A stretch of DNA of 64,000 nt from Candidatus Saccharimonadota bacterium (GCA_016178135.1 JACOTW010000007.1:431-64430); one strand, 5' to 3'; counted from the stretch's first letter, positions 1,667-56,109 are shown. The notes: a model not told the origin generated them from the sequence alone. Made by a program: numbers and translations.

Positions 1667-1807
1667 TATAGTCCCCGCAAAACAAATTCGTGGGTTTTTG
1701 AAGCAATGATCTTTGAGCCAAAAACTGACTTTTCCGAGAGAGACATATCCTTAGATACGTTGAACGAGGAAAGGCGGTTTTGGGCCAAAGAGGGTGATTC
1801 GAAAAAT
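1667..1807 (+). mobile_element. family-A palindromic MITE-like element, copy A1 (intergenic)
   Basis: TA + TAGTCCCCGCAAAACAAATTC arm + a 110-nt imperfect palindrome core. The core is identical to the copies at 8210, 49404 and 55610. Confidence 0.8.
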
Positions 1808-2122
1808 TGTCGGTTGGTAATAGCTCAAAAGCTAATTCGCCAAAAAATATTTTTTTCACAATATACTCCGTATTTAATTTTTGTTTTGTTTTTCAACATA
1901 CATCATTATACATGATTTTGTATATTTGTCAATCTTGGTATGCCGCATGTTCAGTACGTCCGGATTGTAAAAACCAAATTTTTATGCTTAAATACACTAT
2001 GCAGGTTCTTATCTGTCGTTCGCGGTCGGGATATTTGTTTCTTGGTTATTAAAGAGCAGGTCCGTCGATAAGCGTTTGCAATAAGGGGTCGTACCTGAAA
2101 GTTAATAATTAGGAAACAATAT

Positions 2123-2419
2123 ATGTATAAGTTATTTGTAGGTGGTTTGCCATTTTCAACTACTGACGACGAACTGCAACAGGCTTTTGCCCAGTACGGT
2201 ACCGTTGCTTCAGCAGTTGTTATTCGTGACCGCGACACCCAACGCAGTAAAGGTTTTGGATTCGTTGAATTTGAAAACGATGAAGAAGGCAAAGCTGCTC
2301 AGGATGCAATGAATGGTAAGGAACTTGGTGGCCGTGCTATTACGGTTAATCAAGCCCGTGAACGCGAAGAACGTCCACGTCGCGACTTCGGTGGTGACAA
2401 CAATCGCCGTAGCTGGTAA
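2123..2419 (+). CDS. RRM-type RNA-binding protein
   Basis: RNP-2 LFVGGL and RNP-1 KGFGFVEF motifs, with an RG-rich C-terminal tail. Confidence 0.85.
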   Translation: MYKLFVGGLPFSTTDDELQQAFAQYGTVASAVVIRDRDTQRSKGFGFVEFENDEEGKAAQDAMNGKELGGRAITVNQAREREERPRRDFGGDNNRRSW

Positions 2420-2463
2420 TCTACCAGACGCACTCTATTCCGCAAGGTATTAGAGTGCGCTAT

Positions 2464-2538
2464 CGCGGGGTAGAGCAGTGGCAGCTCGTGTGGCTCATAA
2501 CCACAAGGTCGCAGGTTCGAGTCCTGCCCCCGCTACCA
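2464..2538 (+). tRNA. initiator tRNA-fMet (anticodon CAT)
   Basis: Cloverleaf folded by hand. Acceptor CGCGGGG/CCCCGCT has a 1:72 mismatch, the anticodon loop is CTCATAA, the T-arm is GCAGG-TTCGAGT-CCTGC, and CCA is encoded. It closely resembles the E. coli initiator tRNA as I recall it. Confidence 0.85.
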
Positions 2539-4087
2539 AGAAAGATTCAGAAGGCTCTTCGGAGCCTTTTTCTGTTGTTATACATCTGTAAAGTGGGCTG
2601 ATTTGAGAGGTTCCAAACTTACCGCTCGTAGAGTCATAGACCAGCCTCTCTGGAAACAACATATTTTGGAACCTAATTTGTATATCTAGGTCAGATTCTA
2701 TCCATTGCTTGTCCACGTTGTCCATTACAGTAATTGCAAACTCAATATCTGTTTCATGAATGGTTTGTTGTTGTTCCAGCTCCCTTAATTCAGTGGACTT
2801 CTCTAGTTTCTGTTGGTCAAGTAACCCTGTCAGGTCATTCTTCTCCTCAACAGTTATAACACCCTCTGTAAGCTTCTGAATTGCATTAAGCCTAGAGGTG
2901 TCAATTTGGCTTAAATCCTGCCTGAGAGTGCTTATGTGCTGGTTTAGCTTACCCAGTGCATTACCCGCCTCTCTTATCAATACTGTTTTGTATAGTTTTA
3001 AAATGCCCTCTGATGGTTTTATGCGTTTTAGCATATCTTCAAAATCATCATGTACTTGTCTGGCCTTTATGGACTTAACTAAGCCCTTACAGGTGGCTCT
3101 GGCACAGTGGTATCTAGGAGAGCGTTTGCCGTTCCCAGTAGTCGGTGCTGAGGCATACAGCTTATTGTTACAGTTATGACAGAGTAGTAGCCCTTTTAGC
3201 GGATACTCCCTGTTTTGTTTGAGGTGTGTCTCATTTTTTCTGCTGTTCTTACCATATAACAACGATTGATTCCTCTCAAAAGTATCTACAGATATTAATG
3301 ACAAGTGCTTACCATCCACTAACTCGTAGTTGGTAAACTTATCACTAATGTATCCAGCGTATATAGGGTGTTTTATCATTCTGTTTATGCTGTCTTCGCT
3401 TAGTATCTTGCCATAACGGCTCCTAAGCCCAATATCTGAGGCGTAACGGCTCAATTCGGCCTTTGTCGTATCTCCAACACTAAAGCGTTCTAAGACCTTC
3501 TTAACCTTTTCAGCCATCCCGTTAGGCTTAAGTGTTGGACGCGGTTTGCCACGCTCATTTAGTATCTTGTGTGTTTCGTAGCCAATCATGGGCGGATGTT
3601 GCCAGTAACCCTGTTCCGCCAAAGCTTTCATATTATCTACCGTTACTTCCGCCTTGCCCTCATTGTCCAACTGACCAAGCAGAACTAGGAAGTTTTCCAT
3701 GAATCTACCTATTTTAGTATCATCTACAACCGATTCCGTTGCTGAACGAACGGTAATCCCCATAGTTTTTAAAACTAATCTAATCTGCTGTACGTATGAG
3801 TCTAAATCACGAGACGCCCTTCTCATGTTATAGACAATCAAATAATCTATCTTACCTCTGAACTTCTTTGCGAAAGCGAGTAAGTTTAAAAGTTCTTCAC
3901 GATCCGCATTTTTACCTGACTTCGCTATATCTTCGAACCACTCGATTATTTCTATATCTTTATCTTCAGCGTACTTTGTAATTATTGCCCTTTGTGTCTC
4001 AGGACTTTCATTATCTATCTGCCTTGTAGACGATATTCGTATGTATGCAACTGCTTTTTTTCTCGTTTCGAGAGCCATAGTACTCAC
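2495..4087 (-). CDS. large serine recombinase (integrase)
   Basis: N-terminal resolvase catalytic motif VAYIRISSTRQ, a recombinase domain, a Cys-rich zinc-ribbon (CHNCNNK...RYHCARATCKG) and a coiled-coil C-terminus. The last ~15 codons are antisense to the tRNA. Confidence 0.9.
   Translation of the reverse strand: MSTMALETRKKAVAYIRISSTRQIDNESPETQRAIITKYAEDKDIEIIEWFEDIAKSGKNADREELLNLLAFAKKFRGKIDYLIVYNMRRASRDLDSYVQQIRLVLKTMGITVRSATESVVDDTKIGRFMENFLVLLGQLDNEGKAEVTVDNMKALAEQGYWQHPPMIGYETHKILNERGKPRPTLKPNGMAEKVKKVLERFSVGDTTKAELSRYASDIGLRSRYGKILSEDSINRMIKHPIYAGYISDKFTNYELVDGKHLSLISVDTFERNQSLLYGKNSRKNETHLKQNREYPLKGLLLCHNCNNKLYASAPTTGNGKRSPRYHCARATCKGLVKSIKARQVHDDFEDMLKRIKPSEGILKLYKTVLIREAGNALGKLNQHISTLRQDLSQIDTSRLNAIQKLTEGVITVEEKNDLTGLLDQQKLEKSTELRELEQQQTIHETDIEFAITVMDNVDKQWIESDLDIQIRFQNMLFPERLVYDSTSGKFGTSQISPLYRCITTEKGSEEPSESFLVAGAGLEPATLWL
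2551..2571 (+). terminator. rho-independent terminator after tRNA-fMet
   Basis: AAGGCTC-TTCG-GAGCCTT hairpin followed by a T-run. Confidence 0.6.
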
Positions 4088-4311
4088 TATACACCAAGCT
4101 CTTTTTTGGAACTACTTCTTTGCAAGTATTGTTTAGCCATAAGAGTAAGGGTGTCTATTATTTCGATCATTTGGTTGTCGGATAGCCCAACAGAATCTTT
4201 ACCAAGTATTTTTCTGGCTTCCTTGACGCTAATTGAGGGCTTATAAGCAGCTTTTAGACCTAGGTACATAAAAAGAACGCACTTCCCCTGCCGATTGTCG
4301 CCAACCAGCAT
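4087..4311 (-). CDS. small hypothetical protein (possible excisionase or DNA-binding protein)
   Basis: ORF abutting the recombinase start. The likely start is the internal Met (MYLGLK...). No motif recognised. Confidence 0.3.
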   Translation of the reverse strand: MLVGDNRQGKCVLFMYLGLKAAYKPSISVKEARKILGKDSVGLSDNQMIEIIDTLTLMAKQYLQRSSSKKELGV

Positions 4312-4405
4312 TAATGCGTTCTAAATGACTGCTTATGTTTTATAAATCTTAAGGAACTATATATATTCTAACATTTGCTCTTATCAGACACAATATAGGG
4401 CAGTC

Positions 4406-4852
4406 TTAGCCGTTTTTGTTGACCTGTTGCATAAGATTCACATGGACTGGCTGCATGGGTATAATACCCTCAATTTTATCTAGATATACCAGAGCTTTAT
4501 AACGTACATTCCAGTCAGGAAGGGTGATATAACCACCGTTATACATCCTGCCGCCCGGAGTTTCTGCATAGAAGTCTTCAGGTTCTCTGGCGGGGATTTT
4601 TTTAGTTGCTCCAAGCATTTGCCCCCACAATCTGGCTCGCTCGATATTCGTGTTCTCGGCGTACTCCTCAATCAAACTTATATAGTTACGCCGTTTCTGT
4701 GCGATTACGTGCGATTCAGACCTCATAAGGCGTGAGGCAGTGCTATTACTTTGCATAGCAGTACCCTGGATTGCTTCTCGTGTAGACATGCCTTCTGCAA
4801 GACGCTGAAGCACTATAGACTTGTCTTCAAGTGGAATCGTTTTATTAGCCAT
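4406..4852 (-). CDS. HTH protein resembling a phage terminase small subunit
   Basis: N-terminal HTH (LAEGMSTREAI) and a C-terminal PDWNVRYKALVYLDKIEGI segment, which resembles the TerS (Terminase_2-type) pattern as I recall it. Confidence 0.45.
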   Translation of the reverse strand: MANKTIPLEDKSIVLQRLAEGMSTREAIQGTAMQSNSTASRLMRSESHVIAQKRRNYISLIEEYAENTNIERARLWGQMLGATKKIPAREPEDFYAETPGGRMYNGGYITLPDWNVRYKALVYLDKIEGIIPMQPVHVNLMQQVNKNG

Positions 4853-4932
4853 GCTCCTATTTTACACCTATCTAACAGATAGGAAATAATTTCATAATTG
4901 AAAAAGGTGTTTGTAAAGAGTTATGCTGTGGA

Positions 4933-5045
4933 TGTCTAGATTAGCGACAGTTTTTATTTGCACTCGAGAATGGGCAACCTCTCTCGAAAACGATGAGTGC
5001 AAACTTGTCGCTGGTCTAGACAATCTAGAGGAGGTTGTCCTTTTT
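4933..5045 (+). promoter_or_regulatory. long nested hairpin in the divergent control region or 5' leader
   Basis: GTCTAGATTAGCGACAGTTT pairs with AAACTTGTCGCTGGTCTAGAC, and the inner TTTGCACTC pairs with GAGTGCAAA. The loop sequence GGGCAACCTC is complementary to the downstream GAGGTTGTCC followed by T5. Confidence 0.45.
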
Positions 5046-5075
5046 GATAGCCTCTGAAATTAATCAGGAGGCCGT

Positions 5076-5585
5076 ATGAGCACCCACAGCAAAAGACAAG
5101 AACTTATTAATCAAGCTAACTCGTGGGCAAACTGGAGTTTCGCGGGGCTATTATTTCCTGCTGGAGGCTGGTTCGCTGGTATCAAAAGCCTGATGAAACT
5201 AAGCAAACTTACCCCGAAGACAAACGAAGAAATACGGTTATTCCAGAATATACGCACCAAGGCGTGGTGGGCGTTGGTGTTATCTACTCTGACTTTTATT
5301 ATTGTAGTGTGGGTCAGAATAGACAACTACCAGCAAGCGGAGCGGGAAGCGACTGAGGCAAGCCAACAAGCAGATGAGGCCAAGAAAACAGAAGAAGCAC
5401 AGCAAGAACAGGCTGCTGCGTCCAGAGCTACTCAGCAATTACTACTAAATAACTGCTTAGAAGGGATTGATAAATGGTATAGAGAAAACTCAACCGGCCT
5501 TAATACTGACTCTTACTGGGATAGATTATTAGAACTTCGCAAGCAATATACTACTGAGTGCAATGCCAAGTACCCAGTGCAATAG
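5076..5585 (+). CDS. membrane protein with Q/E-rich linker and a Cys...C-x-KYP C-terminal module
   Basis: AGGAGG RBS 6 nt upstream and two predicted TM segments. The C-terminal motif is shared with the next ORF. Confidence 0.5.
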   Translation: MSTHSKRQELINQANSWANWSFAGLLFPAGGWFAGIKSLMKLSKLTPKTNEEIRLFQNIRTKAWWALVLSTLTFIIVVWVRIDNYQQAEREATEASQQADEAKKTEEAQQEQAAASRATQQLLLNNCLEGIDKWYRENSTGLNTDSYWDRLLELRKQYTTECNAKYPVQ

Positions 5586-5600
5586 GAAGGGAAAATATCA

Positions 5601-5954
5601 ATGATTCATGCCGCGTTATGGTTAATATCAGCTTGCATAGTAGTAACTTTTGTTCTTGTTGGTTTGGGGTTAGCAGGAGCCTTGCTTGGGTTTCTTTTTA
5701 GTAAGGAGATGGCACCAATAACAATTGGAGCTATTTTACTTATTGGGTTTTGGGTATATAGAACTGTTGATAGCCAAAATAAGCAAACAGAGGTTCGTCG
5801 TAAGAACAATACGGTATTACAGCAACAGTGTATTGATAGAGTACGGTCAATAGCAAAGGCTAATTTTAAGCCCGATTTAACTTATCTTAAGAAGTTAAAT
5901 GTGGCGAAAGAACAAGCCATCACTGATTGTGAAATAAAATACCCTACCTACTAG
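5601..5954 (+). CDS. membrane protein, paralog of the preceding ORF
   Basis: Two TM segments. The C-terminal QQQCIDRV...DCEIKYPTY parallels NNCLEGID...ECNAKYPVQ in the preceding ORF. Confidence 0.5.
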   Translation: MIHAALWLISACIVVTFVLVGLGLAGALLGFLFSKEMAPITIGAILLIGFWVYRTVDSQNKQTEVRRKNNTVLQQQCIDRVRSIAKANFKPDLTYLKKLNVAKEQAITDCEIKYPTY

Positions 5955-6133
5955 ATTATTCTTTATTTACTTTTCCCCAAGGTTCAATTCTGAATTCACC
6001 CCAGTTAAGCATAAGCTTATACACAATCTTTATGCTTACCATTCCATGAAATACTTGACATGTTTTGTCAAGATGATATATACTGTAATGGCTAAATCGA
6101 AACGGTCATCTTCGGATGGCCGTTTTACTTAAC

Positions 6134-6745
6134 TTAATAGAGAATAGCCCTGTGCTGTGCAACTGATTCAAGATTAATTAAATCTATACAGCCCTCTTTG
6201 TCCAAGTCCTTAAGTTTTCCAGATGTGTTCAGGCTTGCTGGATATTTCAAGGGAGAGAACACCCGTACTTTTTTTCTGAGTTCTGAAACTACAAATTCGT
6301 ATAAGTAAGCGAAGTCTCCATCTCCAGAAAAAACGATAATATCATCGCATTTATCAGTAATACAAAGCCTTGTTACATCAACAGTAAGTTCAGCGTCGCA
6401 ATTCGCTTTAGATTTATCGTTCATTTTATGCTCGTGGATGAATTCATTTTTACACTTCGGGCATTCACAGCCAATTTCTATAATTTTTCCATCGTAGACT
6501 TGGACTGGTTTTATTTTCATTTCATAACCGAGTTTGGCTAAACCATTATATTTGTTTTCACGCTGCGAATCGCCTTCAACTAAGCCAACGTATAAGAATA
6601 CTTTTTTAACATTCTTCTTGTTTCTTAGCCACCAATAGAGCTTTACATAGTCAACGTTCTTATAGCCCATAGCCTTAAAACTCTTAAATAGGTTTTCTCC
6701 GTCAATAAAAGCATATGTTACTGGTTGCTTGGTCATGCAACACAT
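6134..6745 (-). CDS. NYN/LabA-like (PIN-fold) nuclease domain protein with inserted zinc ribbon
   Basis: AFIDGENL and FSGDGDF motifs typical of NYN domains, with a CECPKCKNEF insert. The likely start is the Met at 6736. Confidence 0.7.
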   Translation of the reverse strand: MCCMTKQPVTYAFIDGENLFKSFKAMGYKNVDYVKLYWWLRNKKNVKKVFLYVGLVEGDSQRENKYNGLAKLGYEMKIKPVQVYDGKIIEIGCECPKCKNEFIHEHKMNDKSKANCDAELTVDVTRLCITDKCDDIIVFSGDGDFAYLYEFVVSELRKKVRVFSPLKYPASLNTSGKLKDLDKEGCIDLINLESVAQHRAILY

Positions 6746-6993
6746 TATAGCTTGTTACGCTATTAAATTAGGATATTCGCCTCTTGCGTTCCAGTCTTAA
6801 GGGGTAGAGTAAATAATCGGGTTAACTACTCTTGAGAGTATCTTCCATCTCGCTAACTCCTCACGGATATTGTTCCAATTCGAATGAACAAGGGCTACCA
6901 AAATAAGAATCCCAGCTTGTCTGGGGTTTTTATTTTGGTACAGAGTCAAGATTCCGGTTCTGCGACAGAGATTTTCTGAAAGAAAATATCGTA

Positions 6994-7088
6994 GTCGCAG
7001 GTTCGTTGGAGCAACAGCTCTCGCAGAAGCTCGCTTAGAGAAAGCTGTTGCGGATAAAGGACGAAGTCCGCTGTCCTGCCCCCGCTAC
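6994..7088 (+). repeat. duplicated tRNA-fMet 3' segment (candidate att site) split by a 67-nt hairpin insert
   Basis: GTCGCAGGTTCG (6994-7005) and GTCCTGCCCCCGCTAC (7073-7088) are identical to 2508-2519 and 2521-2536. The insert carries a perfect 9-bp stem GCAACAGCT/AGCTGTTGC. Confidence 0.7.
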
Positions 7089-7104
7089 TAAGTTTTGATT
7101 TAAG

Positions 7105-7126
7105 TCGGCCGAAAGGCCGATTTTTT
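7105..7126 (+). terminator. rho-independent terminator after the tRNA fragment
   Basis: TCGGCC-GAAA-GGCCGA followed by T6. Confidence 0.65.
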
Positions 7127-7280
7127 GCATTAACAGATAAGAATTGTTCAGTTTAGCGGCTCCAAAACCAGTTGAGAAATTGTAACAAACCTGCAAAAAT
7201 TACATCTGTTAGAGTATGGACCTCTGAAGCTCCTGAAGCCTGAAGCACTCTGAAGCATTTCAGTAACTTTTGCGTTGGGA

Positions 7281-7308
7281 TTGACAGGTATTACAATGTG
7301 TGTATAAT
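7281..7308 (+). promoter_or_regulatory. sigma-70-type promoter of the toxin-antitoxin pair
   Basis: TTGACA (7281-7286), a 16-nt spacer, then TGTGTATAAT, an extended -10 (TATAAT at 7303-7308), 9 nt before the ATG. Confidence 0.6.
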
Positions 7309-7316
7309 GTATTACT

Positions 7317-7592
7317 ATGAATACATCAGTTATCAGTATCAAAACCGATCCCAAGACCAAGAAGGAACTCCAGGGCTTCGCCGAATCTTTGGGTATGACA
7401 GTGAGCGGGCTTATCAACGCACAGGTGCGTCAAATGCTGCGTGACCGCAAGGTTGTGTTGACCGATACGCTTGAGCCCACGCCTTACTTAGAAAATATCA
7501 TGCGCCAGACCGAGAAAGACCTAAAAACCGGCAAAAACATTAGTAAACCAATGACGCCAGATGAACTTTTTGACCACCTAGCTAGTCTATGA
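7317..7592 (+). CDS. RelB/DinJ-family antitoxin
   Basis: N-terminal ribbon-helix-helix pattern ISIKTDPKTKKELQGFAESLGMTVSGLINAQVRQM. It overlaps the toxin start by 4 nt. Confidence 0.75.
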   Translation: MNTSVISIKTDPKTKKELQGFAESLGMTVSGLINAQVRQMLRDRKVVLTDTLEPTPYLENIMRQTEKDLKTGKNISKPMTPDELFDHLASL

Positions 7593-7844
7593 ACGTACGT
7601 CCACAAAAAAGTTTTAATCGCCAGTTTTCTAGGCTAAAGTCTAACCAAAAACAAACAGCCACCAATCGCATTAAGCTGTTCGTGATCAACCCCTATGATG
7701 CTCAGCATCCACTCAAAGGCGAGTGGCATGGTTACAGATCCATCAGTGTAGGCGGTGACTTGCGTATTCATTTCAAAGAGCTGCCAGATAAATAAGACCA
7801 TTCTTTTTGTAGCCATCGGCACGCACGCTCAATTGTACAAATAA
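7589..7844 (+). pseudogene. RelE/YafQ-family toxin, frameshifted
   Basis: HPLKGEWHGYRSISVGGDLRIHF lies in frame 1 and stops at 7795. The canonical C-terminus TILFVAIGTHAQLYK continues in the +1 frame to 7844, with the shift in the GATAAATAAG run. Confidence 0.65.
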
Positions 7845-8209
7845 ACCCATTTCGGCACCCGCCTACGGCTAGCTTCCCGAGTGACTTTCTCTCCCTCATA
7901 ATCTTCTAGAAAATTCTATACTGGTCTGAACTCGAAAGCTGTTCCATGACCTTAATATTTTATCGGCATACCATAGGTGTTAATACGTTAAATCACATTT
8001 TTATTATCTGTTCGAGATTAAACCCCATATCCCCATATCCCCCATTTAATGGCGAATGGCAGGCACTACCAGACGATAGGTTTATGACAAGTGCCGAGCT
8101 GCTTGAATCAGTCGAGCGGGTGCCACGCCTATTCCCAAATGCATAAGTTCGAGTCCTAGCTATTGGGTCAAGTAATATAATTTTGAGCCAAAACTCGATT
8201 CCAGCGAAG

Positions 8210-8348
8210 TATAGCCCCCGCAAAACAAATTCCCGACTTTTCGAATCACCCTCTTTGGCCCAAAACCGCCTTTCCTCGTTCAACGTATCTAAGGATATGT
8301 CTCTCTCGGAAAAGTCAGTTTTTGGCTCAAAGATCATTGCTTCAAAAA
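8210..8348 (-). mobile_element. family-A element, copy A2 (core inverted relative to its arm)
   Basis: The TATAGCCCCCGCAAAACAAATTC arm is in the same window orientation as the other copies, but the identical 110-nt core is reverse-complemented. So the arm is attached to the opposite end of the core. Confidence 0.8.
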
Positions 8349-8837: not shown

Positions 8838-9015
8838 CACGGGTTTCGCACTTTTTCACCACCCCAGATCAATCCCACAGGGCTGCAAACTGCTTATGGA
8901 ATTAATAAGATGTACATACTGAACACCGATTTTTGGGCTCATCATTCAAAATTTGGTCATTTTGCGTTGACAGGCATGGCTATTGTAATGCCCATAGTTG
9001 ACACGATAGTGTAGA

Positions 9016-11737: not shown

Positions 11738-11847
11738 TTAGACCTACCCGAAGCTCCTCCATCCCCAGATCGAATTCTGTCGGCTCCAAACAGTTTTCAC
11801 CAGAAATAATTCACTCTGGGATCGGGCGATTTTGCGACAGGTCAAGT
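11738..11847 (+). mobile_element. family-B MITE-like element, copy B1 (short form, degenerate ends)
   Basis: It shares ...GCTCCTCCATCCCCAGATCGAAT...TCGGCT...AAACAGTTTTC...TTCACTCTGGGA.CGGGCGATTTTGCGACAGG with other B copies. The central part is missing. Confidence 0.7.
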
Positions 11848-11853
11848 GTAGAT

Positions 11854-36722: not shown

Positions 36723-36728
36723 TAATAT

Positions 36729-36867
36729 ACTCGACTTAAGCGAAACCATACGTTCCCAGAGTGAACTTGTTGTATCTGAAGAGGGGTATCTATAACTAGA
36801 GAAGATCGGTCGCTACCAGCCGAGATTAGATGGTCTGGAGATGGGAGAGTTTTGCGACAGGTCCAAT
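36729..36867 (-). mobile_element. family-B element, copy B5 (reverse orientation, diverged)
   Basis: ACTCGACTTAAGCGAAACC.TACGTTCCCAGAGTGAA ... CCGAGATTAGATGGTCTGGAGATGGGAGAGTTTTGCGACAGGTCCAAT. Confidence 0.7.
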
Positions 36868-36917
36868 CTATTCCTCGCTCAACATAGGCTACGGCCTAAG
36901 TCTCTCTAGGCCACAAA

Positions 36918-36972
36918 TTTCGCACTTTTCCATCGCCTCAGCTGCCACCTGGCATCAATGGCTAAGTGCGAA
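36918..36972. repeat. family-C hairpin element (TTTCGCACTT...AAGTGCGAAA)
   Basis: Imperfect palindrome. The reverse complement of its right arm matches 49325-49360 at about 33 of 36 positions. Confidence 0.6.
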
Positions 36973-36973
36973 A

Positions 36974-39748: not shown

Positions 39749-41131
39749 ATGAAGCTCAAGAAAGTGGTGGATCGTTCACCACTTTTCAGACCAAAGCGCT
39801 ACACAACAGTAGTCATGGCATTGATAATATTTACCGGAGCAGCCGGTTCATTGTTTGCCGCTATTAATACTAGATCCATAACTCGCGACTCTTTAATGTC
39901 TCGTGCAACTACAGCGGCCGCCGCTCTAAATGTTAAAGACATCCAGAAACTGACTGGTAATGATACGGATATACAGTCACCCACTTATCAAGATTTGAGA
40001 CATCGACTAACACAAATAAGATCCGACAACCCAGACATACGTTTCGTTTATCTACTAGGTCAACGTAACAACAAAATCTACTTCATGGTAGATTCAGAAT
40101 CTGAAGCCAGCAAGCTTCATTCGCCACCCGGTAAAATCTATCCGGGAGTATCTAATAATGTACGAGGCTCTTTCATTATAAGCAAAGCATTTATAGAGGG
40201 TCCGGTCCAAGATAATTACGGTAACTGGCTGTCGGCAATTGTCCCGATAGTCGATAATTCTACTGGCAATACCGTCGCTTTATTAGGCATCGATATACCT
40301 AGCTCTGATTACTACTGGCAGATTTTTGTGTATTCCTTGGTACCTCTGCTTTTGGCAGCCATACCTTTTGCCGGACTACTTAGAGACCGTCAGTTAGAGG
40401 CCAAGGAACGTGAAATTACTCAACTCAAGACCCAGTTTCTGTCTGTTGCTTCACATGAACTCCGATCACCCCTGACAGGAACACTTTGGGCAGTGCAAAC
40501 ACTGCTAAAACCAACGACCAACAATAACCTGACAGGTCCACAGACAGACTTACTTACCGATATTTACAGCAGTACGGCTTCATCGCTAACCACCGTAAAT
40601 GAAATTCTTGATTTTTCAATCTTTGATCGCGACAAAGCTATAAAACTCCAGCATGAGACAGTGGATCTCATACCGGTACTTCAAGAGGCACAAAAAATGC
40701 TTAGACTAAGCGCCAAGGAAGCTGATGTTAAAATTGTCTTTTCCAATAAGTGGCCAACTTTAGTTGAAACCATTGGTGATGTTGCCGCTCTGAAACGAGC
40801 ATTTACGAATATAATTGCAAACGCTATCAAATACAGCCGTGCCAAAACGAAAGTGGAATTAGTGTATCATTTTCAAAATGGTGAACATGTTATAGCAGTT
40901 CGCGATCATGGCATTGGCATTCCAAAATCCGAACAAGGTCGTGTATTGGAAGGTTATTATAGGGCAACGAATGCACTAAAAGTGCAATCACGCGGCACTG
41001 GACTGGGGCTTTGGATGACTCGCCTAATCATTGAGCGCCACGGTGGTAAATTATGGCTAAAATCAAGAGAAGGTGATGGTACTATTGTTTTCGTTGCTTT
41101 ACCAACACTAGATAAACCAACAAGCACTTAA
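39749..41131 (+). CDS. sensor histidine kinase
   Basis: TM segments flank an extracellular domain. H-box SHELRSPL, N-box, and G-boxes DHGIGIP / GTGLGL. Confidence 0.9.
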   Translation: MKLKKVVDRSPLFRPKRYTTVVMALIIFTGAAGSLFAAINTRSITRDSLMSRATTAAAALNVKDIQKLTGNDTDIQSPTYQDLRHRLTQIRSDNPDIRFVYLLGQRNNKIYFMVDSESEASKLHSPPGKIYPGVSNNVRGSFIISKAFIEGPVQDNYGNWLSAIVPIVDNSTGNTVALLGIDIPSSDYYWQIFVYSLVPLLLAAIPFAGLLRDRQLEAKEREITQLKTQFLSVASHELRSPLTGTLWAVQTLLKPTTNNNLTGPQTDLLTDIYSSTASSLTTVNEILDFSIFDRDKAIKLQHETVDLIPVLQEAQKMLRLSAKEADVKIVFSNKWPTLVETIGDVAALKRAFTNIIANAIKYSRAKTKVELVYHFQNGEHVIAVRDHGIGIPKSEQGRVLEGYYRATNALKVQSRGTGLGLWMTRLIIERHGGKLWLKSREGDGTIVFVALPTLDKPTST

Positions 41132-41351
41132 ACTGGACTTACGCAAAACTCCTCCATCCCCAGATCGAATTCTATCGGCTACTCTTCGAGTCTGAGCCTG
41201 AGGGCTCACCTCAGAGTCGAAGACAAACAGTTTTTCTTCTTTCAATGTAGCCAAGAACTAATTAGCTCTAAAGCTACCTCTCCTTCAGATAAAACAGTTT
41301 TCGCTCGAGATAATTCACTCTGGGAACGGACGATTTTGGGTAAGTCCAGTT
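41131..41351 (+). mobile_element. family-B element, copy B6 (long form with a nested hairpin insert)
   Basis: TA|AACTGGACTTACGCAAAA...TTTTGGGTAAGTCCAGTT|TA. The extra internal palindrome TCTTCGAGTCTGAG...CTCAGAGTCGAAGA is absent from other copies. Confidence 0.85.
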
Positions 41352-41358
41352 TAGATTG

Positions 41359-41760: not shown

Positions 41761-41926
41761 TATAGCAATCCCAAAACAAAATGACCATTTTAAGCCACGC
41801 CTCAGCGGCCAAAAACTTCCATTCCTCCCTCAGCGTATCTACGGATATGCTTTAGTCGGAAATGGAAGTTTTTGACTCACTGATCCGTCAACCTAAAAAA
41901 GACATTTTGTTTTGGGATTACTATAG
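41761..41926. mobile_element. 166-bp two-armed relative of family A (element D)
   Basis: 23-bp TIRs TATAGCAATCCCAAAACAAAATG / CATTTTGTTTTGGGATTACTATA flanked by TA. The centre GGCCAAAAACTTCC...CGTATCTACGGATATG...GGAAGTTTTTGAC is homologous to the family-A core. Confidence 0.75.
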
Positions 41927-46228: not shown

Positions 46229-46376
46229 TTGATAAACCTATCGCAAAATCTCCGTTTCCAGGGCGAATCAGCTCGAGCAAAAACAGTTTTATCTGGAAGG
46301 TACGTAAAGAGAAGAAAAACTGTTTGCAGCTGAGTTTAGTCAGTCTGAGGACGAGCGATTTCGCGACAGGTTCAGT
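46229..46376 (-). mobile_element. family-B element, copy B7 (reverse orientation, degenerate left end)
   Basis: ...CTATCGCAAAATCTCCGTTTCCAGGGCGAATCAGCTCGAGCAAAAACAGTTTT...GAGCGATTTCGCGACAGGTTCAGT. Confidence 0.75.
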
Positions 46377-46687
46377 GTACGCCAACCAATATACCAAAGC
46401 ACCGTGGCAACAATCAGACTTGTGATACCCAAGCCTGCAAACCAACCAATTTTGGATGATCTTGGTGGTGGTGCTACTTGTTGGCTTACGTAAGCAGTAA
46501 CCTCTTCTTGGCTTATGCCACTAATATCAATCGGAATACCGCCTACATTACTATTATCTAGAGCCTTAAAATTAGCCGTTGATTGTAGTCCCTCTTGCTG
46601 ATTAAGCAGGTTTTGACCGCCACCGATAGTTTGGGGGTTACCAGTTTTTAGCTGATCATTAGATTGAAGATTTTGGAATGACTGCAT
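46340..46687 (-). CDS. hypothetical protein with a C-terminal TM segment; tail and stop lie in B7
   Basis: The last ~12 residues (TLNLSRNRSSSD) are encoded by the repeat. Confidence 0.45.
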   Translation of the reverse strand: MQSFQNLQSNDQLKTGNPQTIGGGQNLLNQQEGLQSTANFKALDNSNVGGIPIDISGISQEEVTAYVSQQVAPPPRSSKIGWFAGLGITSLIVATVLWYIGWRTLNLSRNRSSSD

Positions 46688-46707: not shown

Positions 46708-47556
46708 CTAACTAATTATTAGTGAGGTTAGAATTGCTTTTATAGGGTCAACAAAATTTTTATCATCCAGCATACTACTCGGAACTCCTACGGATGCTCC
46801 CGCTTCTGAACAGCTACTATCCGAACATTTAACAAAAGCCACACTAATAACCGGCTCTATTGGCAAAATGTCGGCCTTTGGTATGGCCTGTGCCAATTGA
46901 TAACCAGTATCACCTGTTATAAACATAGCATCAATCGTGGTTTCCGAAGTCGTTGAGCCAGCAAGATGCAAAAAACTTAGAAACGTCTGTCCTCGTTGAT
47001 TTTGAGCGGGCTGGGTATAAGTAATCTTTTCTGATGCTCGGGTGGCCAACGCATTGCCCTTGTCAAATTCCGGAAATTTTTGCTGCTTGGTACGAATCAT
47101 AATAATGATTTGCCCGTTAATATCCTGACCGCCTCTTATATTTTTAAATTTGTTGCTGGGCGAACGTAGGATAAGCTGACCATTACCCTCGACATCTGTT
47201 AGAACCCAATCTTCTGGATAATCCATAGACAGACCGAATTGACCGGATATGTAGTGTTTAGATGCGACGGTCGGCTTGGATGATGTTTCTGATTGTCTGA
47301 CACTCGTTGGTTGAGGCTTTGATTCTTGTGGTCCTGTCCGTACAAAAAACCAATATCCAATTACGCCTATAACAACCAAGGTACCAAAAACAAATATCAA
47401 GCCCAACGAACGTTGACTACGCAGTTTTGATCTATACTTCGGGGGAGTCAGATCTGCAAAATCACGCGTTTCTTCCAAAGAATCCCTATAAGCATCTCTA
47501 CCTTCTGGTGTACGCGGACTATCTGGACGCGGTGTGTCGTGGTAATCCATAACCAT
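46708..47556 (-). CDS. membrane-anchored hypothetical protein
   Basis: An N-terminal cytoplasmic tail, a TM segment and an extracellular domain. Confidence 0.5.
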   Translation of the reverse strand: MVMDYHDTPRPDSPRTPEGRDAYRDSLEETRDFADLTPPKYRSKLRSQRSLGLIFVFGTLVVIGVIGYWFFVRTGPQESKPQPTSVRQSETSSKPTVASKHYISGQFGLSMDYPEDWVLTDVEGNGQLILRSPSNKFKNIRGGQDINGQIIIMIRTKQQKFPEFDKGNALATRASEKITYTQPAQNQRGQTFLSFLHLAGSTTSETTIDAMFITGDTGYQLAQAIPKADILPIEPVISVAFVKCSDSSCSEAGASVGVPSSMLDDKNFVDPIKAILTSLIIS

Positions 47557-47561
47557 AATTA

Positions 47562-47724
47562 TACTGGACTTGTCGCAAAATCCCCCGTTCCCAGGGCGAA
47601 TCAGCTCGAGCGAAAACAGTTTTGTCTGAAGGAGAGGTACCCAGGAGGTACATCGAGAGAGGAAAAACTGTTTGTAGCCGAGGTTAGTCGGTCTGGGGAT
47701 GAGGGATTTTGCGTAAGTCCAGTT
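47562..47724 (-). mobile_element. family-B element, copy B8 (full length, reverse orientation)
   Basis: TA|TACTGGACTTGTCGCAAAATC...GGGATTTTGCGTAAGTCCAGTT|TA. It fills the whole gap between two genes. Confidence 0.85.
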
Positions 47725-49247
47725 TAAGAGGCTGTTTTCAGAAGATTCAAAATATCAGGGCCATATTTAGCGGCTTTGGCAGGGCCAATGCCGTTTACGG
47801 CTAACAATTGGCTGTCTGTCTGTGGCTTACTAGTAGCAATGGTGAGCAACAAGCTATCGTGAGCAATTATGTAGGCTGGCATACCCTCATCTCTGGCACG
47901 CTTAGTACGCCAAGCTTTTAATTTGGCTAGCAGATCATCATCAACGGCCTGTACTGGTGGCTCTTCGGTTTCAGTATCGTCTTCGGCCTCTGTAGTAATG
48001 TCAGCCAGTCTGGACGACGATGACTTTAACGCTTGGTCCAGTTCAAATATGGCTGGGTGTAGTCGCAATGCCATAGCATTAATACCGCTCAAATATAGTC
48101 CGTCCAGACTACGCACGCGCGACAAAGCTACATAGCCCATGCCAGGCGTAAACGTCTTACTCAAGTCAATTTCAGCAGCATCTAGACTCATACCTTGGCT
48201 TTTATGAATCGTAATAGCCCATGCCAGGCGTAGAGGCAACTGCATAACTTCCGCCCTAATTTTATTATCTTCTTCAAGTTTCCAGCTATGGGGCACGACT
48301 TTGATCTTGCGGGTACTGTTATATAGACGCACGATTGGTTGTTCGTTATTAAACTCCACAACCCGCCCACGCGTACCATTAACAAAACCAGCCGTCGGAT
48401 TATTGGCCACAAACATTATTTCCGCACCAATTTTTAGTTCCAACAAATCAGCCGCCAAAACACCACGCTGTAACTGTTCAATCTTTAACGCTGAACCTTT
48501 AGTAGTCATTTCGTAAGTATGAATTTCGTTCGGTAATTCCTTAAGACGACGCTGATTAAGGGTGTCAATATCCACATTGTGGGCATACAGGCGAGTCACT
48601 GACTGGTTACTAGACGGTCGCTGGCCTATTCTAGTTTTTAATAACTCTCGATGATATGGCTCCAGTTCATCATGACGCATGGCCTCTAATAACTCCAGTA
48701 AGCCGTCACGCTGTTGACGATGTTGCTCGCTCAAGTAGCAAATTTGTGGATTTAGTTCTCGCCAAGCGGCCGACAAATGCACAAAGTCTGGCGCTTCCAT
48801 GCCACGATTGACTGGAGGCAATTGAAACAAATCACCAACCAATATAACTTGCAAACCTCCAAAAGGTCGTTCGCTTTTACGCAGTAATTTACAAGCTTCA
48901 TTGACCATATCCAATCTGTGCCCATGTAGCATTGAAACTTCATCGATAACTAAAATATCAGTCGAATTATAACGTTTAGCCAGTTTTGCATTCACTGCCA
49001 ATTGCTGACGAGTCCTCGGGTCAATATATTCTTTTATGCCCAGACCAGACCAAGAATGAATAGTCACGCCACCGATATGCGTCGCCGCAATACCCGTACT
49101 GGCGGTAACTGCCACTGTTTTGCCGTGCTTCTTGGCACGCCGAATAAACTCATTCAAAATATAAGTCTTGCCAGCCCCTGGCGGTCCAGTCAAAAACACC
49201 GCCTCTCCCCCCAACATAACATTCAACGCCTGCTTCTGCCTCATCAC
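47724..49247 (-). CDS. PIF1/RecD-like ATP-dependent DNA helicase with a C-terminal HRDC domain
   Basis: Walker A GPPGAGKT and DEVSM. The C-terminal AWRTKRARDEGMPAYIIAHDSLL...NGIGPAKAAKYG is HRDC-like. Confidence 0.85.
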   Translation of the reverse strand: MMRQKQALNVMLGGEAVFLTGPPGAGKTYILNEFIRRAKKHGKTVAVTASTGIAATHIGGVTIHSWSGLGIKEYIDPRTRQQLAVNAKLAKRYNSTDILVIDEVSMLHGHRLDMVNEACKLLRKSERPFGGLQVILVGDLFQLPPVNRGMEAPDFVHLSAAWRELNPQICYLSEQHRQQRDGLLELLEAMRHDELEPYHRELLKTRIGQRPSSNQSVTRLYAHNVDIDTLNQRRLKELPNEIHTYEMTTKGSALKIEQLQRGVLAADLLELKIGAEIMFVANNPTAGFVNGTRGRVVEFNNEQPIVRLYNSTRKIKVVPHSWKLEEDNKIRAEVMQLPLRLAWAITIHKSQGMSLDAAEIDLSKTFTPGMGYVALSRVRSLDGLYLSGINAMALRLHPAIFELDQALKSSSSRLADITTEAEDDTETEEPPVQAVDDDLLAKLKAWRTKRARDEGMPAYIIAHDSLLLTIATSKPQTDSQLLAVNGIGPAKAAKYGPDILNLLKTAS

Positions 49248-49318: not shown

Positions 49319-49400
49319 TACACGAGTTTCGCACTTAGCCGTTGATGCCAGGTTGCAACTGGACGAGCGAAAACTTTTAATCCGAGTGAGGCATAACCGT
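49319..49400. repeat. family-C half element abutting A3
   Basis: ACACGAGTTTCGCACTTAGCCGTTGATGCCAGGTTGCAACTGGACGAGCGAAAACTTTTAATCC... Confidence 0.55.
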
Positions 49401-49403
49401 AGT

Positions 49404-49544
49404 TATAGCCCCCGCAAAACAAATTCGTGGGTTTTTGAAGCAATGATCTTTGAGCCAAAAACTGACTTTTCCGAGAGAGACATATCCTTAGATACGTTGA
49501 ACGAGGAAAGGCGGTTTTGGGCCAAAGAGGGTGATTCGAAAAGT
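49404..49544 (+). mobile_element. family-A element, copy A3 (intergenic, TA-flanked)
   Basis: TA|TAGCCCCC...CGAAAAGT|TA. The element is 139 nt between the TA dinucleotides. Confidence 0.85.
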
Positions 49545-49575
49545 TAGGTAACGCTTTGGTGTAAGTGGTTCAATA

Positions 49576-50883: not shown

Positions 50884-50888
50884 AAACG

Positions 50889-51980: not shown

Positions 51981-52059
51981 TTTGTTGCCAATTCCAGAGT
52001 AATCCTGCTTGGACCGAAAATTGTTAAGTTTCTGGAGGGGTAACCATAGCTAAACTGAC

Positions 52060-52125
52060 AAGAGATAAACAGTTTGCAACCCTACAGGATTGGTCTGGGG
52101 ACGGGCGATTTTGCGTAAGTCCAGT
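52060..52125 (-). mobile_element. family-B element, copy B9 (half element)
   Basis: ...AAACAGTTTG...GGTCTGGGGACGGGCGATTTTGCGTAAGTCCAGT followed by ATAAT. Confidence 0.7.
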
Positions 52126-52161
52126 ATAATGTATTATGAGTAACAACATGGAGATTTATGC

Positions 52162-52818: not shown

Positions 52819-53102
52819 GTCCAGTTGATCTCTTTGCACTTGCACAGCACTAAACTTATGACTAATACTTGATAAATTGCTGCCAATTTGGCCGCTTAAT
52901 TTTTACTTCCACTTTATACTCCCTAGAGGATACTATTTTTATTTTTACAGCCATTACCTTAACATTCCCCAAAACCACGAGCGCACACATACACTCGTTA
53001 TTATGTTTTTATTAGAACAAGTTTTTGTATTTCTTACGGTTATTATCCGCTTGAAGTACAACTATACTCTCATAACCATAACCATATTGTCAATTAGTAT
53101 TT

Positions 53103-53582
53103 TTATTTTTGGTTGTGATTACTTAAGGGGTTGAACCTATTTAATGCTTGTCCGGCCTCCCGCAAAGTAAGACGACGCTTGTGTTCGGCGTGAATCTTGC
53201 CGTGAAGCTTATGTAATGTAGCACTGGCTATCTGTTTTTCATGGAGCAAACGAAATTCATCATCAAGTTTTGCCAGCTCATCATCGGTCATATCTTCTAG
53301 GTCTACAAAAGAATTCCGAGCTTTAGTAGACAAAATAAGCTCGTCAAGTTTGAGCTGCATAGCTTTGCCGTCACGATTCTGTGTATTTTGAATCAAAAAT
53401 ACCATCAAAAAGGTCCCAACTGTAGTGCCGGTATTAATAAGTAGCTGCCAAGTATCTGAATAATTAAACACTGGTCCAGTTAATGCCCAAACCACCACTA
53501 GTGCTATAGCCAATAAAAATGCCAGGGCGCTACCTGTCCAAGTGGAAACCTTACTAGCGATTTTACGAAAATGTTCTTTCAT
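53103..53582 (-). CDS. low-affinity iron permease family protein
   Basis: WQLLINTGTTVGTFLMVFLIQNTQNRD motif. Confidence 0.75.
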   Translation of the reverse strand: MKEHFRKIASKVSTWTGSALAFLLAIALVVVWALTGPVFNYSDTWQLLINTGTTVGTFLMVFLIQNTQNRDGKAMQLKLDELILSTKARNSFVDLEDMTDDELAKLDDEFRLLHEKQIASATLHKLHGKIHAEHKRRLTLREAGQALNRFNPLSNHNQK

Positions 53583-53694
53583 TTAGCTCATTTATTTTTT
53601 ATTGTTTACCATGGATTCTTATGCCTATTTATCGTAGAATACCCCTATATGTTAGAAAATACAAATCCTATCTTATACAGAACCGGTGTAAGTT

Positions 53695-55395
53695 TTGGAG
53701 TCTTGCATGAATAGTGTCTTTACCGAACTAAGCATTGTTATTGTCTTTAGCGTTTTTGTAAGTATGTTTTTGCGTTTTATTCGACAGCCGATGATCATTG
53801 GTCATATTATCACCGGTATTTTAGTAGGGCCGATTGCTTTTCATGTTATTAAATCTCCTGAAACATTTGAAGTTTTTGGACAATTCGGCATTGCTCTTTT
53901 ATTGCTTATCGTTGGTATCGGATTAAATCCTCGCGTAATCCAGGAAGTTGGTAAAATTGCCGCGTTAATCGCATTCAGTAAAGTTACCCTTACTACTGGT
54001 TTTGGTTTCGCGATATCAAGACTTTTTGGCTATGATCAAGTAGCGTCTCTGTACATTGGTATCGGGCTATCATTTTCAAGTACCATTATTATTTTGAAAT
54101 TATTGACGGATAAGAAAGAGCAGAATCGCCTGTATGGCAAGATCTCAGTTGGCTTTCTTCTAGTAGAAGACCTGATTGCCACACTGGTCTTAATTGGTGT
54201 CGCAGCCACTGGTAGTGGCGGGCTATCACTTAACGATATAACCCAATTAATATTAAAAGCCGCTTTGATTATAGGTGGCGTGATGCTAGTACGCGGTGCC
54301 TTATTGCCTAGACTAAATAATATTATTGCGGGATCGCAAGAATTTTTATTTATTTTTGCGATTGGCTGGAGTTTAGGATTAGCCACGCTATTTGACAAGC
54401 TCGGATTTAGTCTTGAGATTGGCGCTCTACTGGCCGGTATCACACTAGCGTCACAGCCCTACGCCCAAGAGATAGCTTCTAGATTAAAACCCTTGCGCGA
54501 TTTCTTCATCGTACTGTTTTTTATATCGCTCGGATCACATCTGGGAGTAGACCACATAGAATCTATCCTGCCAAAAGCTTTAGTGTTTTCTAGTCTGGTT
54601 TTAGTAGGAAATCCGATAATCGTCATGACCGTCATGGGCTTATCGGGCTATACCAAAAAATCTAGCTTTAAAGTTGGAATTGCTGGTGCACAAGTTAGCG
54701 AATTCTCATTTATATTGTTGCTGTTAGCTAATCAACTTGGTCAGATTAGTACCGAAATAGTTTCTTTGGTAACTATTACCGCTCTAATCACTATCGCGGT
54801 ATCTACCTATGTGATAAATTATTCTGATAAATTATATAGCTTATTCGAACGCTACTTGCACTTGTTTGAAAGACAAAATTTACGTGCAGAACACGAACGC
54901 AGTCAGCACTTTGATTTAGTACTGATTGGCTATCAAAAAGGTGGCCATGAGTTTCTTAAAGTATTTCAGCGGCTACATCATTCTTATACTGTAATAGATT
55001 ATGATCCGACTGTTATAGACACGCTTGAACGTAACCACATAAATTATATGTACGGTGATGTTACCGACCCCGAGCTTTTAAATGAAATCGATTTAGAACG
55101 TGCTAAATTGATTGTCTCAAATCTCTCGGATCTACCGACTAATCAATTTTTGTTGAGGTGGATGGAAACTCATAATCCTCATGTGGTTTTTATATGTTCC
55201 GCTGATACTATTGAACACGCTGCCGAGCTTTATAGTTTAGGAGCAGCTTACGTCATGTTGCCACATTACATCGGTAGCGAAAAAATTGGAGCTTTTATAA
55301 AAAAGAATGGACTTAAAAAAAGCGAGTTCAAAAAGTACCGAGAACGGCATCTGGCATATCTACAAAGCCACTACTCTGCTTCTAGTGAAGTGTAG
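53695..55395 (+). CDS. CPA2 cation:proton antiporter (Kef-type) with a C-terminal TrkA-N-like domain
   Basis: About 12 TM segments and the C-terminal LVLIGYQKGGHEF Rossmann-like domain. The likely start is at 53707. Confidence 0.85.
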   Translation: MESCMNSVFTELSIVIVFSVFVSMFLRFIRQPMIIGHIITGILVGPIAFHVIKSPETFEVFGQFGIALLLLIVGIGLNPRVIQEVGKIAALIAFSKVTLTTGFGFAISRLFGYDQVASLYIGIGLSFSSTIIILKLLTDKKEQNRLYGKISVGFLLVEDLIATLVLIGVAATGSGGLSLNDITQLILKAALIIGGVMLVRGALLPRLNNIIAGSQEFLFIFAIGWSLGLATLFDKLGFSLEIGALLAGITLASQPYAQEIASRLKPLRDFFIVLFFISLGSHLGVDHIESILPKALVFSSLVLVGNPIIVMTVMGLSGYTKKSSFKVGIAGAQVSEFSFILLLLANQLGQISTEIVSLVTITALITIAVSTYVINYSDKLYSLFERYLHLFERQNLRAEHERSQHFDLVLIGYQKGGHEFLKVFQRLHHSYTVIDYDPTVIDTLERNHINYMYGDVTDPELLNEIDLERAKLIVSNLSDLPTNQFLLRWMETHNPHVVFICSADTIEHAAELYSLGAAYVMLPHYIGSEKIGAFIKKNGLKKSEFKKYRERHLAYLQSHYSASSEV

Positions 55396-56109
55396 AGTCC
55401 GTTTCTCTTGATATAATTCAACACAGGGATAGCAAGGCCTTCGGGTTCCTTGCCGTTACGAATAGCTTGCTTGATTTTCCTCGATGAAACTTTTGGTAAA
55501 TTATGAGCAATAATCTGGTAGCGGAATCTTAGACCTCTGGTCTTCTCTAAGTTCTCCAAGGTTCTTTGAATTCTATTTTCGTCAGACTGACGCACACTAA
55601 CTATGAAACTATAGTCCCCGCAAAACAAATTCGTGGGTTTTTGAAGCAATGATCTTTGAGCCAAAAACTGACTTTTCCGAGAGAGACATATCCTTAGATA
55701 CGTTGAACGAGGAAAGGCGGTTTTGGGCCAAAGAGGGTGATTCGAATGACTGCAGCAAGCACTCTACGTGTGGCCAGCCGGCCAGATGGTCCAACATGTC
55801 GTCGCCTATCAGCATGTATAGATCCGCTCCTTTGAAACGTTCGGTCAGTAGAGGCAAAGTATCGGCTGGCGTAAACCGCTGCTGATTTAGCACTATGCTC
55901 CCTAGACTATGTTCGTTTTTTATAGCTAGTCTGACCATTTCCGTACGATGCTCAAAGGCTTTTACGCCTTGTTTGCGGCGCGGTCTTGGCTCAACCAGAA
56001 AAAAGATTTTGTCTAGATTGCATTGTTTTAGTGCAGCATTCGCAAAAGCAATATGACCATCGTGTACCGGATCAAACGTCCCTGAATATATTCCTATTCT
56101 GCTTTTCAT
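55371..56109 (-). pseudogene. nadD: nicotinate-nucleotide adenylyltransferase gene interrupted by a family-A element
   Basis: The N-terminal part contains SGTFDPVHDGH and ends ...WPHVECLLQS (56109-55747). The C-terminal part, FIVSVRQ...VSSRKIKQAIRNG...VLNYIKRNGLY (55607-55371), is in another frame. Removing 139 or 136 nt restores one ORF. Confidence 0.8.
55610..55746 (+). mobile_element. family-A element, copy A4, inside nadD
   Basis: Its core is identical to A1-A3. The right end is 4 nt shorter (…GATTCGAA|TGACTG). Confidence 0.85.

Follow-up and report, generated by a model that had tools for sequence, protein, structure and literature searches.

The stretch analysed here, 64,000 nucleotides (nt) from Candidatus Saccharimonadota bacterium (GCA_016178135.1 JACOTW010000007.1:431-64430; hereafter the window, always at its full length), carries four copies of a short hairpin repeat, family A (A1 to A4), together with a related two-armed element, D, and two further repeat families, B and C (Table 1). 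One of the copies, A4, interrupts nadD, the gene for nicotinate-nucleotide adenylyltransferase. The window has a G+C content of 42.9%, and the product of its nadD open reading frame (ORF), P0001, is 100% identical to an NCBI protein labelled Candidatus Saccharibacteria bacterium. We argue below that family A is probably a hairpin-forming miniature inverted-repeat transposable element (MITE) of Saccharibacteria that targets TA dinucleotides, and that its one-armed copies are dead local deletions or variants picked by the assembler.

The four copies share a core without a single mismatch, as a first-pass annotation of the window had reported, although the core measures 109 nt and not the 110 nt quoted there; shuffled sequence yielded no core match. 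A 23-nt arm, TATAGYCCCCGCAAAACAAATTC, is found on the plus strand in all four copies, while the core is on the minus strand only in A2, where, as also described earlier, the arm is joined to the opposite core end. Since the arm is always on the plus strand, it is the core of A2 that is inverted relative to the arm. The linker between arm and core follows this polarity (GTGGG in A1, A3 and A4, CCGAC in A2), as expected from a two-armed parent of the form arm-CCGAC-core-CCCAC-arm'. The core is indeed an imperfect palindrome, and as RNA the plus strand of A1 folds at -47.1 kcal/mol (z = -4.7). The TA flanking attributed to A3 proved weak, being informative on the arm side only.

Table 1. Repeats and other features of the window (coordinates from its first nucleotide)
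Feature	Coordinates	Strand	Remarks
A1	1667-1805	+	arm 1667-1689, linker GTGGG, core 1695-1803; right arm absent in the window
A1 apex motif, 24 nt	1740-1763		GAGACATATCCTTAGATACGTTGA; better-folding strand +
A2	8210-8348	-	arm 8210-8232, linker CCGAC, core 8240-8348; without the other arm (CCCAC plus arm)
A2 apex motif	8280-8303	-	better-folding strand -
A3	49404-49544	+	arm 49404-49426, core 49432-49540; right arm absent
A3 apex motif	49477-49500		better-folding strand +
A4, inside nadD	55610-55746	+	arm 55610-55632, core 55638-55746; arm on the nadD N-terminal side absent
A4 apex motif	55683-55706		better-folding strand +
One-armed junctions of A loci, example sequences			GATTCGAAAAATTGTCGG, GCAGTCATTCGAATC
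Element D	41761-41926	-	two-armed, sister subfamily of the TATAG class; better-folding strand -
Element D apex motif	41830-41853	-	
nadD, N-terminal part	55747-56109	-	121 codons; then enters A4 and stops at the arm TAG
nadD, C-terminal part	55374-55609	-	directly after the A4 arm
Family B copies	18912-19072, 41129-41354, 47555-47736, 63703-63875		
Family B, degenerate or partial	11749-11850, 26460-26546, 33811-33909, 36719-36870, 46245-46379, 52048-52125		
Family C repeat	36939-36980, 49320-49361; also 8844-8867, 36918-36941		ACACGAGTTTCGCACTTAGCC...
Group I intron	32135-32341	-	Rfam, 72.6 bits

A two-armed parent, as proposed in the first-pass annotation, does exist; it is not element D, which had been given that role, but a 167-bp two-armed family A element. 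We found this form at a Saccharibacteria locus (L007), in two copies in a sister metagenome-assembled genome (MAG; GCA_016196105.1, locus L048) and in read-derived contigs. The homology of D to family A holds over its full length and includes both arms, with 32-nt inverted ends of 88% complementarity, and its sequence is identical in contig L049 of the Logan collection. Intact elements of the TATAG class measure 164-168 bp, end in TATAGYCCCCGCAAAAC and have no transposase coding capacity. In family A (the window copies, L007 and L048), three of the six reading frames are free of stops over the full length; in the non-A subfamilies, hardly any frame is without stops. A conserved open reading frame in the elements was dropped as a candidate, the stop-free frames being confined to family A, and a protein search with the element-encoded peptide returned no further copies.

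The insertion in nadD reveals the target. NadD homologues are ~200 residues long, and the ORF at 55609-56109 matches them over its first 121 residues only, the rest being read from A4; on the other side of the element, the C-terminus of the homologue P0003 aligns with the window (tblastn) at 71% identity over 79 residues, ending at 55610. We took the second A4 junction from the sister MAG and from a read-derived contig (L053), which places the insertion at ...CAGTCAGT-TA-GTTTCATA.... When the flanks are joined without the element and one TA, they read ...CAG TCA GT-TA-GT TTC ATA..., that is, QSVSFIVSVR, corresponding to KAVNFIISVR in P0003. Because a single TA restores the nadD frame, A4 must have inserted at one TA and has TA on both sides, the empty site being deduced here from protein homologues and not from an empty DNA allele. 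A second family A insertion, in the sister MAG, occupies the central TA of a palindrome, GAGCTAAT-TA-ATTAGCTC, at the tip of a family B element. The frame reconstruction and this second insertion thus bear out the earlier proposal of a TA-targeting MITE. The elements have the general features of bacterial MITEs: small size, no transposase coding, terminal inverted repeats, target duplication and multiple near-identical copies (four in the 64 kb of the window, three in 20 kb of the sister MAG).

Several further observations concern these two insertions. The annotated 166-residue protein at nadD consists of 121 residues of NadD and 45 encoded by the MITE. The intact element, 165 nt, is stop-free in the nadD frame, and a two-armed allele could yield an in-frame insertion of 55 residues. 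Arm loss as a means of restoring the nadD frame was dropped, the A4 deletion leaving nadD truncated. Beyond the A4 element (L048 from 10532 onward, compared with the window from 55609 downward) the sister MAG continues into Aminotran_4, Ddl and MurF and not into the C-terminus of nadD, and its right arm there has a different variant base; this divergence points to a rearrangement at the element or else to a chimeric join that the assembly made through the repeat. The nested MITE of the sister MAG (L048, 1394-1711), with its family A copy at the central TA of the family B tip, has its left 60-75 nt replaced by 32 nt of unrelated sequence.

The first-pass annotation had gone on to suggest that one-armed derivatives of both polarities had spread. 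Comparison with other assemblies contradicts this for A1 and A4, whose loci carry both arms there. Over 8.4 kb (window 55605-64000), the window differs from the sister MAG by 2 mismatches and one 32-nt gap at the A4 junction, where the MAG has GTTATAGCCTCCGCAAAACAAATTCCCGACTT, made up of 2 nt of flank, TA and 28 nt of element; Logan contig L053 (SRR12113417) has the same second arm at A4. Logan contigs L050 and L051 match the window perfectly at 1806-7997, and have GTCGGGAATTTGTTTTGCGGGGGCTATA and a further 35 nt of flank between 1805 and 1806, so that the window is without 63 nt at A1. At A3, past the flank ...GCGTTACCTAA, Logan contig L047 runs into AATTATGCCCTTCAGTAGG and a family C repeat, not into the A core. 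Among CPR2 genomes, two loci from different assemblies (L023 and L030) are aligned over 6368 bp with no mismatches and one 22-nt gap, which removes one arm. From these three independent comparisons of arm loss in place (A4, A1 and CPR2) it follows that one-armed copies derive from two-armed insertions at the same loci; judged by these alignments, they are not a transposing form. Arm-deleted molecules, moreover, arise often relative to point mutations. It could still be held that units of arm plus core are themselves mobile and spread in both polarities, given four copies with identical cores and similar lengths. We find this barely credible: the A1 and A4 loci are two-armed elsewhere, the missing pieces include flanking sequence at both (35 nt and 2 nt, respectively), and the armless junctions have no target duplication.

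The deletions have a recurrent inner boundary. Read from the sequences of A1 to A4, L030 and L034, their inner end lies 26-31 nt inside the element boundary, roughly the length of an arm plus linker, which is where a transposase would be expected to act. Their outer end lies beyond the element in the window, by 4 nt at A4 (TA plus 2 nt of flank) and by 37 nt at A1 (TA plus 35 nt of flank). A fixed deletion quantum of 22 nt, considered for a time, was abandoned: two CPR2 events are of 22 nt, and those of the window are of 32 and 63 nt. Possible causes are abortive cleavage of a single end by a transposase or processing of an extruded hairpin. In a further CPR2 pair (L036, 4612-6216, and L046, 5423-7049) a one-armed element lies inside an uncharacterised ORF, and a 22-nt indel at its armless edge fuses two ORFs into one of 534 residues.

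The same comparisons bear on the quality of the assembly. Outside the A copies, the Logan contigs (SRR12113388 and SRR12113417) show 100% identity with the window over 18.5 kb and therefore come from the same population, yet A1 and A4 are two-armed in them and the A3 junction is a different one. The one-armed shape may thus be mainly a product of assembly, the assembler having chosen minority deletion alleles or chimeric reads at the hairpin, a reading that we take seriously and rate just short of evenly balanced; the first-pass annotation had itself named an assembly artefact as the outcome that would refute it. The differences are confined to the high-copy, identical family; element D and a degenerate family B copy within L049 agree perfectly. 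All four remnants are 137-141 nt long whichever their polarity, and the longest exact stretch common to the window A copies is 137 nt, just under a k of 141 or a 150-nt read, compared with ~158 nt that two-armed copies would share, as estimated from the sequences. As ~158 nt cannot be bridged by 150-nt reads, a short-read contig could pass the repeats only through shortened variants; the short-read platform and the assembler type of the window contig are assumptions of this argument. On the other hand, a De Bruijn assembler has no means of creating junction k-mers that its reads do not contain, so some reads must have carried the deleted forms, and in CPR2 one one-armed locus is common to two separately assembled genomes (L036 and L046).

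We next consider the hairpin itself, using an alignment of twelve two-armed TATAG-class elements, D included, several of which have unrelated stems. The consensus hairpin comprises 58 pairs, and in 32 of them both sides have changed while remaining paired. The paired share of cells is 92.7% overall; column shuffles bring it down to 77.5%, and sliding the partners by 1-3 columns to 37-49%, and none of 500 shuffles reached any of the observed pairing measures. In the basal helix, of 24 pairs, 97.6% of the cells are paired. The two strands are not equivalent. The strand reading CATATCCKTAGATACGYTGA folds better as RNA in all 36 distinct elements, by 2-38 kcal/mol (-90.5 versus -64.4 kcal/mol in element D), and has more G-U pairs than the opposite strand. 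Transition mismatches on this strand were G:T in 226 cases and A:C in 46 in a DNA-symmetric alignment of the halves, and the same count in the 12-sequence alignment gave 70 versus 14. At the apex, the 24-nt tip is formed by a purine tetrad (mostly GARR) facing YUGA, followed by a C-G pair, a fixed A.C mismatch, four pairs and a CKUA loop. Whenever tip position 21 is C its partner is G (7/7, in three lineages), and the A-C combination was never seen. Judged by eye, the tip fits none of a box C/D motif, a K-turn, a site for integration host factor (IHF) or a DnaA box. The tip of family B repeats the layout seen in A and D (a purine-rich loop plus a small hairpin, GUACC-AGGGA-GGUAC) with a different sequence, and its strands likewise fold unequally (-87 versus -61 kcal/mol). 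Because the fold is kept by compensatory change on one strand, some step of the life cycle or some effect on the host appears to use a single strand, most likely a transcript, possibly single-stranded DNA.

The distribution of the tip was studied with the stretch best conserved between A and D, TCARCGTATCTAMGGATATG, as query against a single genome for each species, and a scan of metagenomes added more matches. They fall in MAGs labelled Saccharibacteria, CPR2, Uhrbacteria, other Patescibacteria, Bdellovibrionales and Gammaproteobacteria, and the genome scan gave no cyanobacterial match. An assignment to Nezha-type MITEs was dropped, as the genome scan matches and the protein names point to Saccharibacteria. 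Matches in two Dorea MAGs and a Lachnospiraceae isolate (genome scan) and one Dorea-type metagenome match were set aside as chance matches in coding sequence. In MAGs assigned to Saccharibacteria, CPR2, Uhrbacteria, Bdellovibrionales and Gammaproteobacteria, an exact 20-mer recurs within hairpin elements whose arms are of at least eight unrelated types. In CPR2 elements the A/D tip comes with B-like arms, which implies that arms and tips are shuffled between families.

These observations allow a different view of the element, namely that the hairpin is a mobile structured RNA gene, its tip and purine-rich loops bound by a conserved protein or RNA and its arms a mere vehicle. The putative transcript would benefit host or element, for example through control of neighbouring mRNAs by RNase III or RNase E or by titrating a factor. 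Covariation and the excess of G.U pairs on one strand speak for it, as do the purine tetrad facing YUGA, which permits tandem G.A pairs, the R-Y covariation at the tip, the same architecture with different sequence in family B, and the presence of one tip on unrelated arms and stems in several phyla. There is also precedent in the RNA-level effects of Correia and ERIC elements (PMC2229807). We nevertheless consider this view, which is built on sequence comparison, unlikely. A search of six element-bearing loci against Rfam at E up to 1 gave just one spurious miRNA-precursor match, well below threshold. Relative to flanking ORFs, the folding strand lies in the same orientation in 23 cases and in the opposite one in 36, a difference that is not significant, and a gene-orientation bias was accordingly dropped. 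No copy has a terminator-like site, and the sole promoter-like call on the elements is the arm start TATAGT as a weak -10 box, for which reason an intrinsic promoter or terminator function was also discarded. Finally, copies disrupt genes (nadD) and are polymorphic, in the manner of selfish elements. A related proposal, that the tip and the purine-rich loops beneath it form a functional single-stranded module, most likely of RNA, which is carried between CPR (candidate phyla radiation) phyla, Bdellovibrionales and Gammaproteobacteria on interchangeable arms and recognised by a factor common to diverse bacteria, is in our estimate doubtful; if true, the module would be a horizontally mobile structured RNA, and more than a MITE.

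The strand-specific fold could also belong to the chemistry of movement. An element moving as a single-stranded DNA hairpin would offer its paired arms as one duplex end to a transposase or recombinase. CPR bacteria take up DNA as single strands, the strand-specific fold belongs to element lineages and not to the orientation of insertion, and the basal helix carries the sequence of the duplex arms. Against this, TA duplication and 24-bp inverted ends are the hallmark of DDE transposition from double-stranded DNA, the scanned window ORFs yielded no HUH or other enzyme acting on single strands, and the elements have none of the left-end/right-end asymmetry of the IS200/IS605 type. We regard this mode of movement as highly unlikely.

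A source of transposase was sought in the window and around other copies. Of the 69 window ORFs of at least 120 residues, ~51 were scanned against Pfam, the longest one wherever ORFs overlapped, and no transposase domain was found among them, in agreement with the earlier reading of the window; Y1_Tnp was likewise without a match. The sole recombinase identified by Pfam is a large serine recombinase of 530 residues (2464-4087). In the neighbourhoods of ~40 other copies, no ORF family recurs beside the elements across taxa, and the annotated neighbour families are housekeeping ones (ruvB, thioredoxin reductase-like, NUDIX and ABC transporter genes). Neither TnpA nor TnpB appeared in the scanned window ORFs or in the neighbours, and there was no Rfam match to omega-RNA or HEARO. 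At the gathering threshold, Rfam 15 recognised only tRNA and a group I intron in the window. Plasmid, phage and IMG/VR searches gave no match, and in the literature searched no paper describes the tip motif or MITEs in Saccharibacteria or other CPR phyla. As first suspected, no Rfam family and no paper searched matches the element.

By description, several known repeats resemble it. The consensus ends of Correia elements start with TATAG and have an A-rich arm, resembling the family A arm. Elements of the Correia family (CREE/NEMIS, Neisseria) are of 100-160 bp with ~24-bp terminal inverted repeats, duplicate TA, have TATA termini and form a long stem-loop over the whole transcript; they also have a conserved internal site (theirs for IHF, in the 155-bp form), insertions fused to ORFs and no known cognate transposase (PMC2229807). 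They belong to another phylum, and comparison, made by description only, shows no evident homology beyond the first arm bases. The conserved interior of family A is a hairpin tip with purine-rich loops, cross-phylum and one-stranded, in which no IHF site was identified. TA ends and long stem-loop transcripts are common to Correia, RUP and ERIC elements (PMC2229807). RUP, of Streptococcus pneumoniae, is a small TA-targeting MITE of high copy identity thought to be mobilised by IS630-Spn1 (PMC2229807); it differs in having a candidate parent insertion sequence (IS) with matching ends, whereas none was found for family A, and in its short, contiguous inverted repeats (9 bp), with no internal motif reported. 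The ERIC or IRU elements of enterobacteria are imperfect palindromes of ~127 bp with TA ends, co-transcribed with their neighbours and with an orientation-dependent effect on mRNA stability (PMC2229807), but have 7-bp inverted ends and a different sequence and are restricted to enterobacteria and vibrios. The MITE of Candidatus Thiomargarita nelsonii, present in >100 copies, has TATAG ends and a long hairpin, is Correia-like and has no parent IS in ISfinder (PMC4853749); it is tied to the P9 hairpin of a group I intron, and its likeness to family A is one of description only.

REPINs, too, are hairpin-forming repeats, their singlets are decayed, immobile remnants, and single-strand folding matters for their recognition. 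Their lack of target duplication, their GTAG/CGTC foot tag and their linked RAYT gene have no counterpart here. Membership of REP/REPIN-RAYT was ruled out by the TA duplication, the lack of a Y1_Tnp match and a conserved tip in place of a foot. An IS200/IS605-derived PATE or omega-RNA was rejected as well, the element being a single whole-length hairpin with inverted ends and there being no TnpA or TnpB and no Rfam match. We class family A and element D, found here in Saccharibacteria, as new members of the known class of Correia/RUP-like TA-targeting hairpin MITEs.

Taken together, we favour the following account, in which an intact element of ~163 bp plus the duplicated TA would be a non-autonomous DNA transposon. 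Its two arms of 23-25 bp are terminal inverted repeats and would serve as binding sites for a transposase supplied in trans. In ISY100, of the IS630 family, 24-bp terminal inverted repeats match the transposase footprint and 30 bp per end are enough for transposition (PMC2170065), and TA duplication with ~24-bp arms is the IS630/Tc1-mariner pattern. The candidate enzyme is most likely a TA-specific DDE transposase of this type, encoded elsewhere in the genome or already lost; as no parent element was found, the TA duplication and the arm length are the two features that point to it. The remainder of the element pairs with itself, so that one strand can fold into a hairpin of ~80 bp with the 24-nt tip (a six-pair stem and the CKUA loop). 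A short deletion that takes one arm would leave a dead copy, the majority of the population presumably keeping both arms at A1 and A4, and the long contig probably crosses the repeats only since shortened variants can be bridged by short reads.

Several points weigh against this account. No autonomous element or IS630-family transposase with matching ends was found in the window or in 53 loci examined. In one CPR2 case the outer deletion end lies 5 nt inside the element, whose last 5 nt are kept; this speaks against simple resection that starts from a transposase cut at the tip. True alleles, rare variants and library chimeras are all possible sources of the deletion junctions. Nothing in a classical cut-and-paste DDE mechanism would account for a strand-specific fold, while the lack of both an orientation preference and a convincing internal promoter or terminator weighs against an RNA role. 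The tip motif was the search key, so that its conservation among the retrieved elements is partly a matter of ascertainment, and family B shares the architecture but not the apical sequence; free of this bias is the finding that the tip is present, in several phyla, on elements whose arms are of at least eight unrelated kinds.

The remaining features of the window concern mostly other repeats. Family B is a second, more numerous family of hairpin MITEs, with arms TATACTGGACTTACGCAAA, in which half copies and internally deleted copies are common. An ORF of 506 residues without a Pfam match (18273-19793, minus strand) spans the copy at 18912-19072 and may be a MITE-bearing gene or a spurious ORF. 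Family C adjoins A3 and also lies near A2, and Logan contig L047 ends in it. The gene for the serine recombinase, whose domains are Resolvase, Recombinase and Zn_ribbon_recom, and the 3' end of a tRNA-Met gene overlap, which suggests an integrated element at the tRNA. Beside the group I intron, the segment 32073-32123 and the 3' half of the tRNA-Met gene show 75% complementarity; 32073-32341 (minus strand) is probably an intron-containing tRNA gene without an ARAGORN call.

As far as the literature searched goes, MITEs are apparently undescribed in Saccharibacteria and other CPR bacteria, whose tiny genomes are thought to contain little mobile DNA, and yet a 64-kb window holds five copies of the A/D class and about ten of a second family. 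Such elements break short-read assemblies; they may give rise to chimeric joins, as the sister MAG suggests, and may lead assemblers to fix rare deletion variants. Genes disrupted by them, such as nadD, affect metabolic inference from MAGs. The one-strand fold and the cross-phylum tip go beyond an ordinary MITE, and raise the question of what reads the structure.

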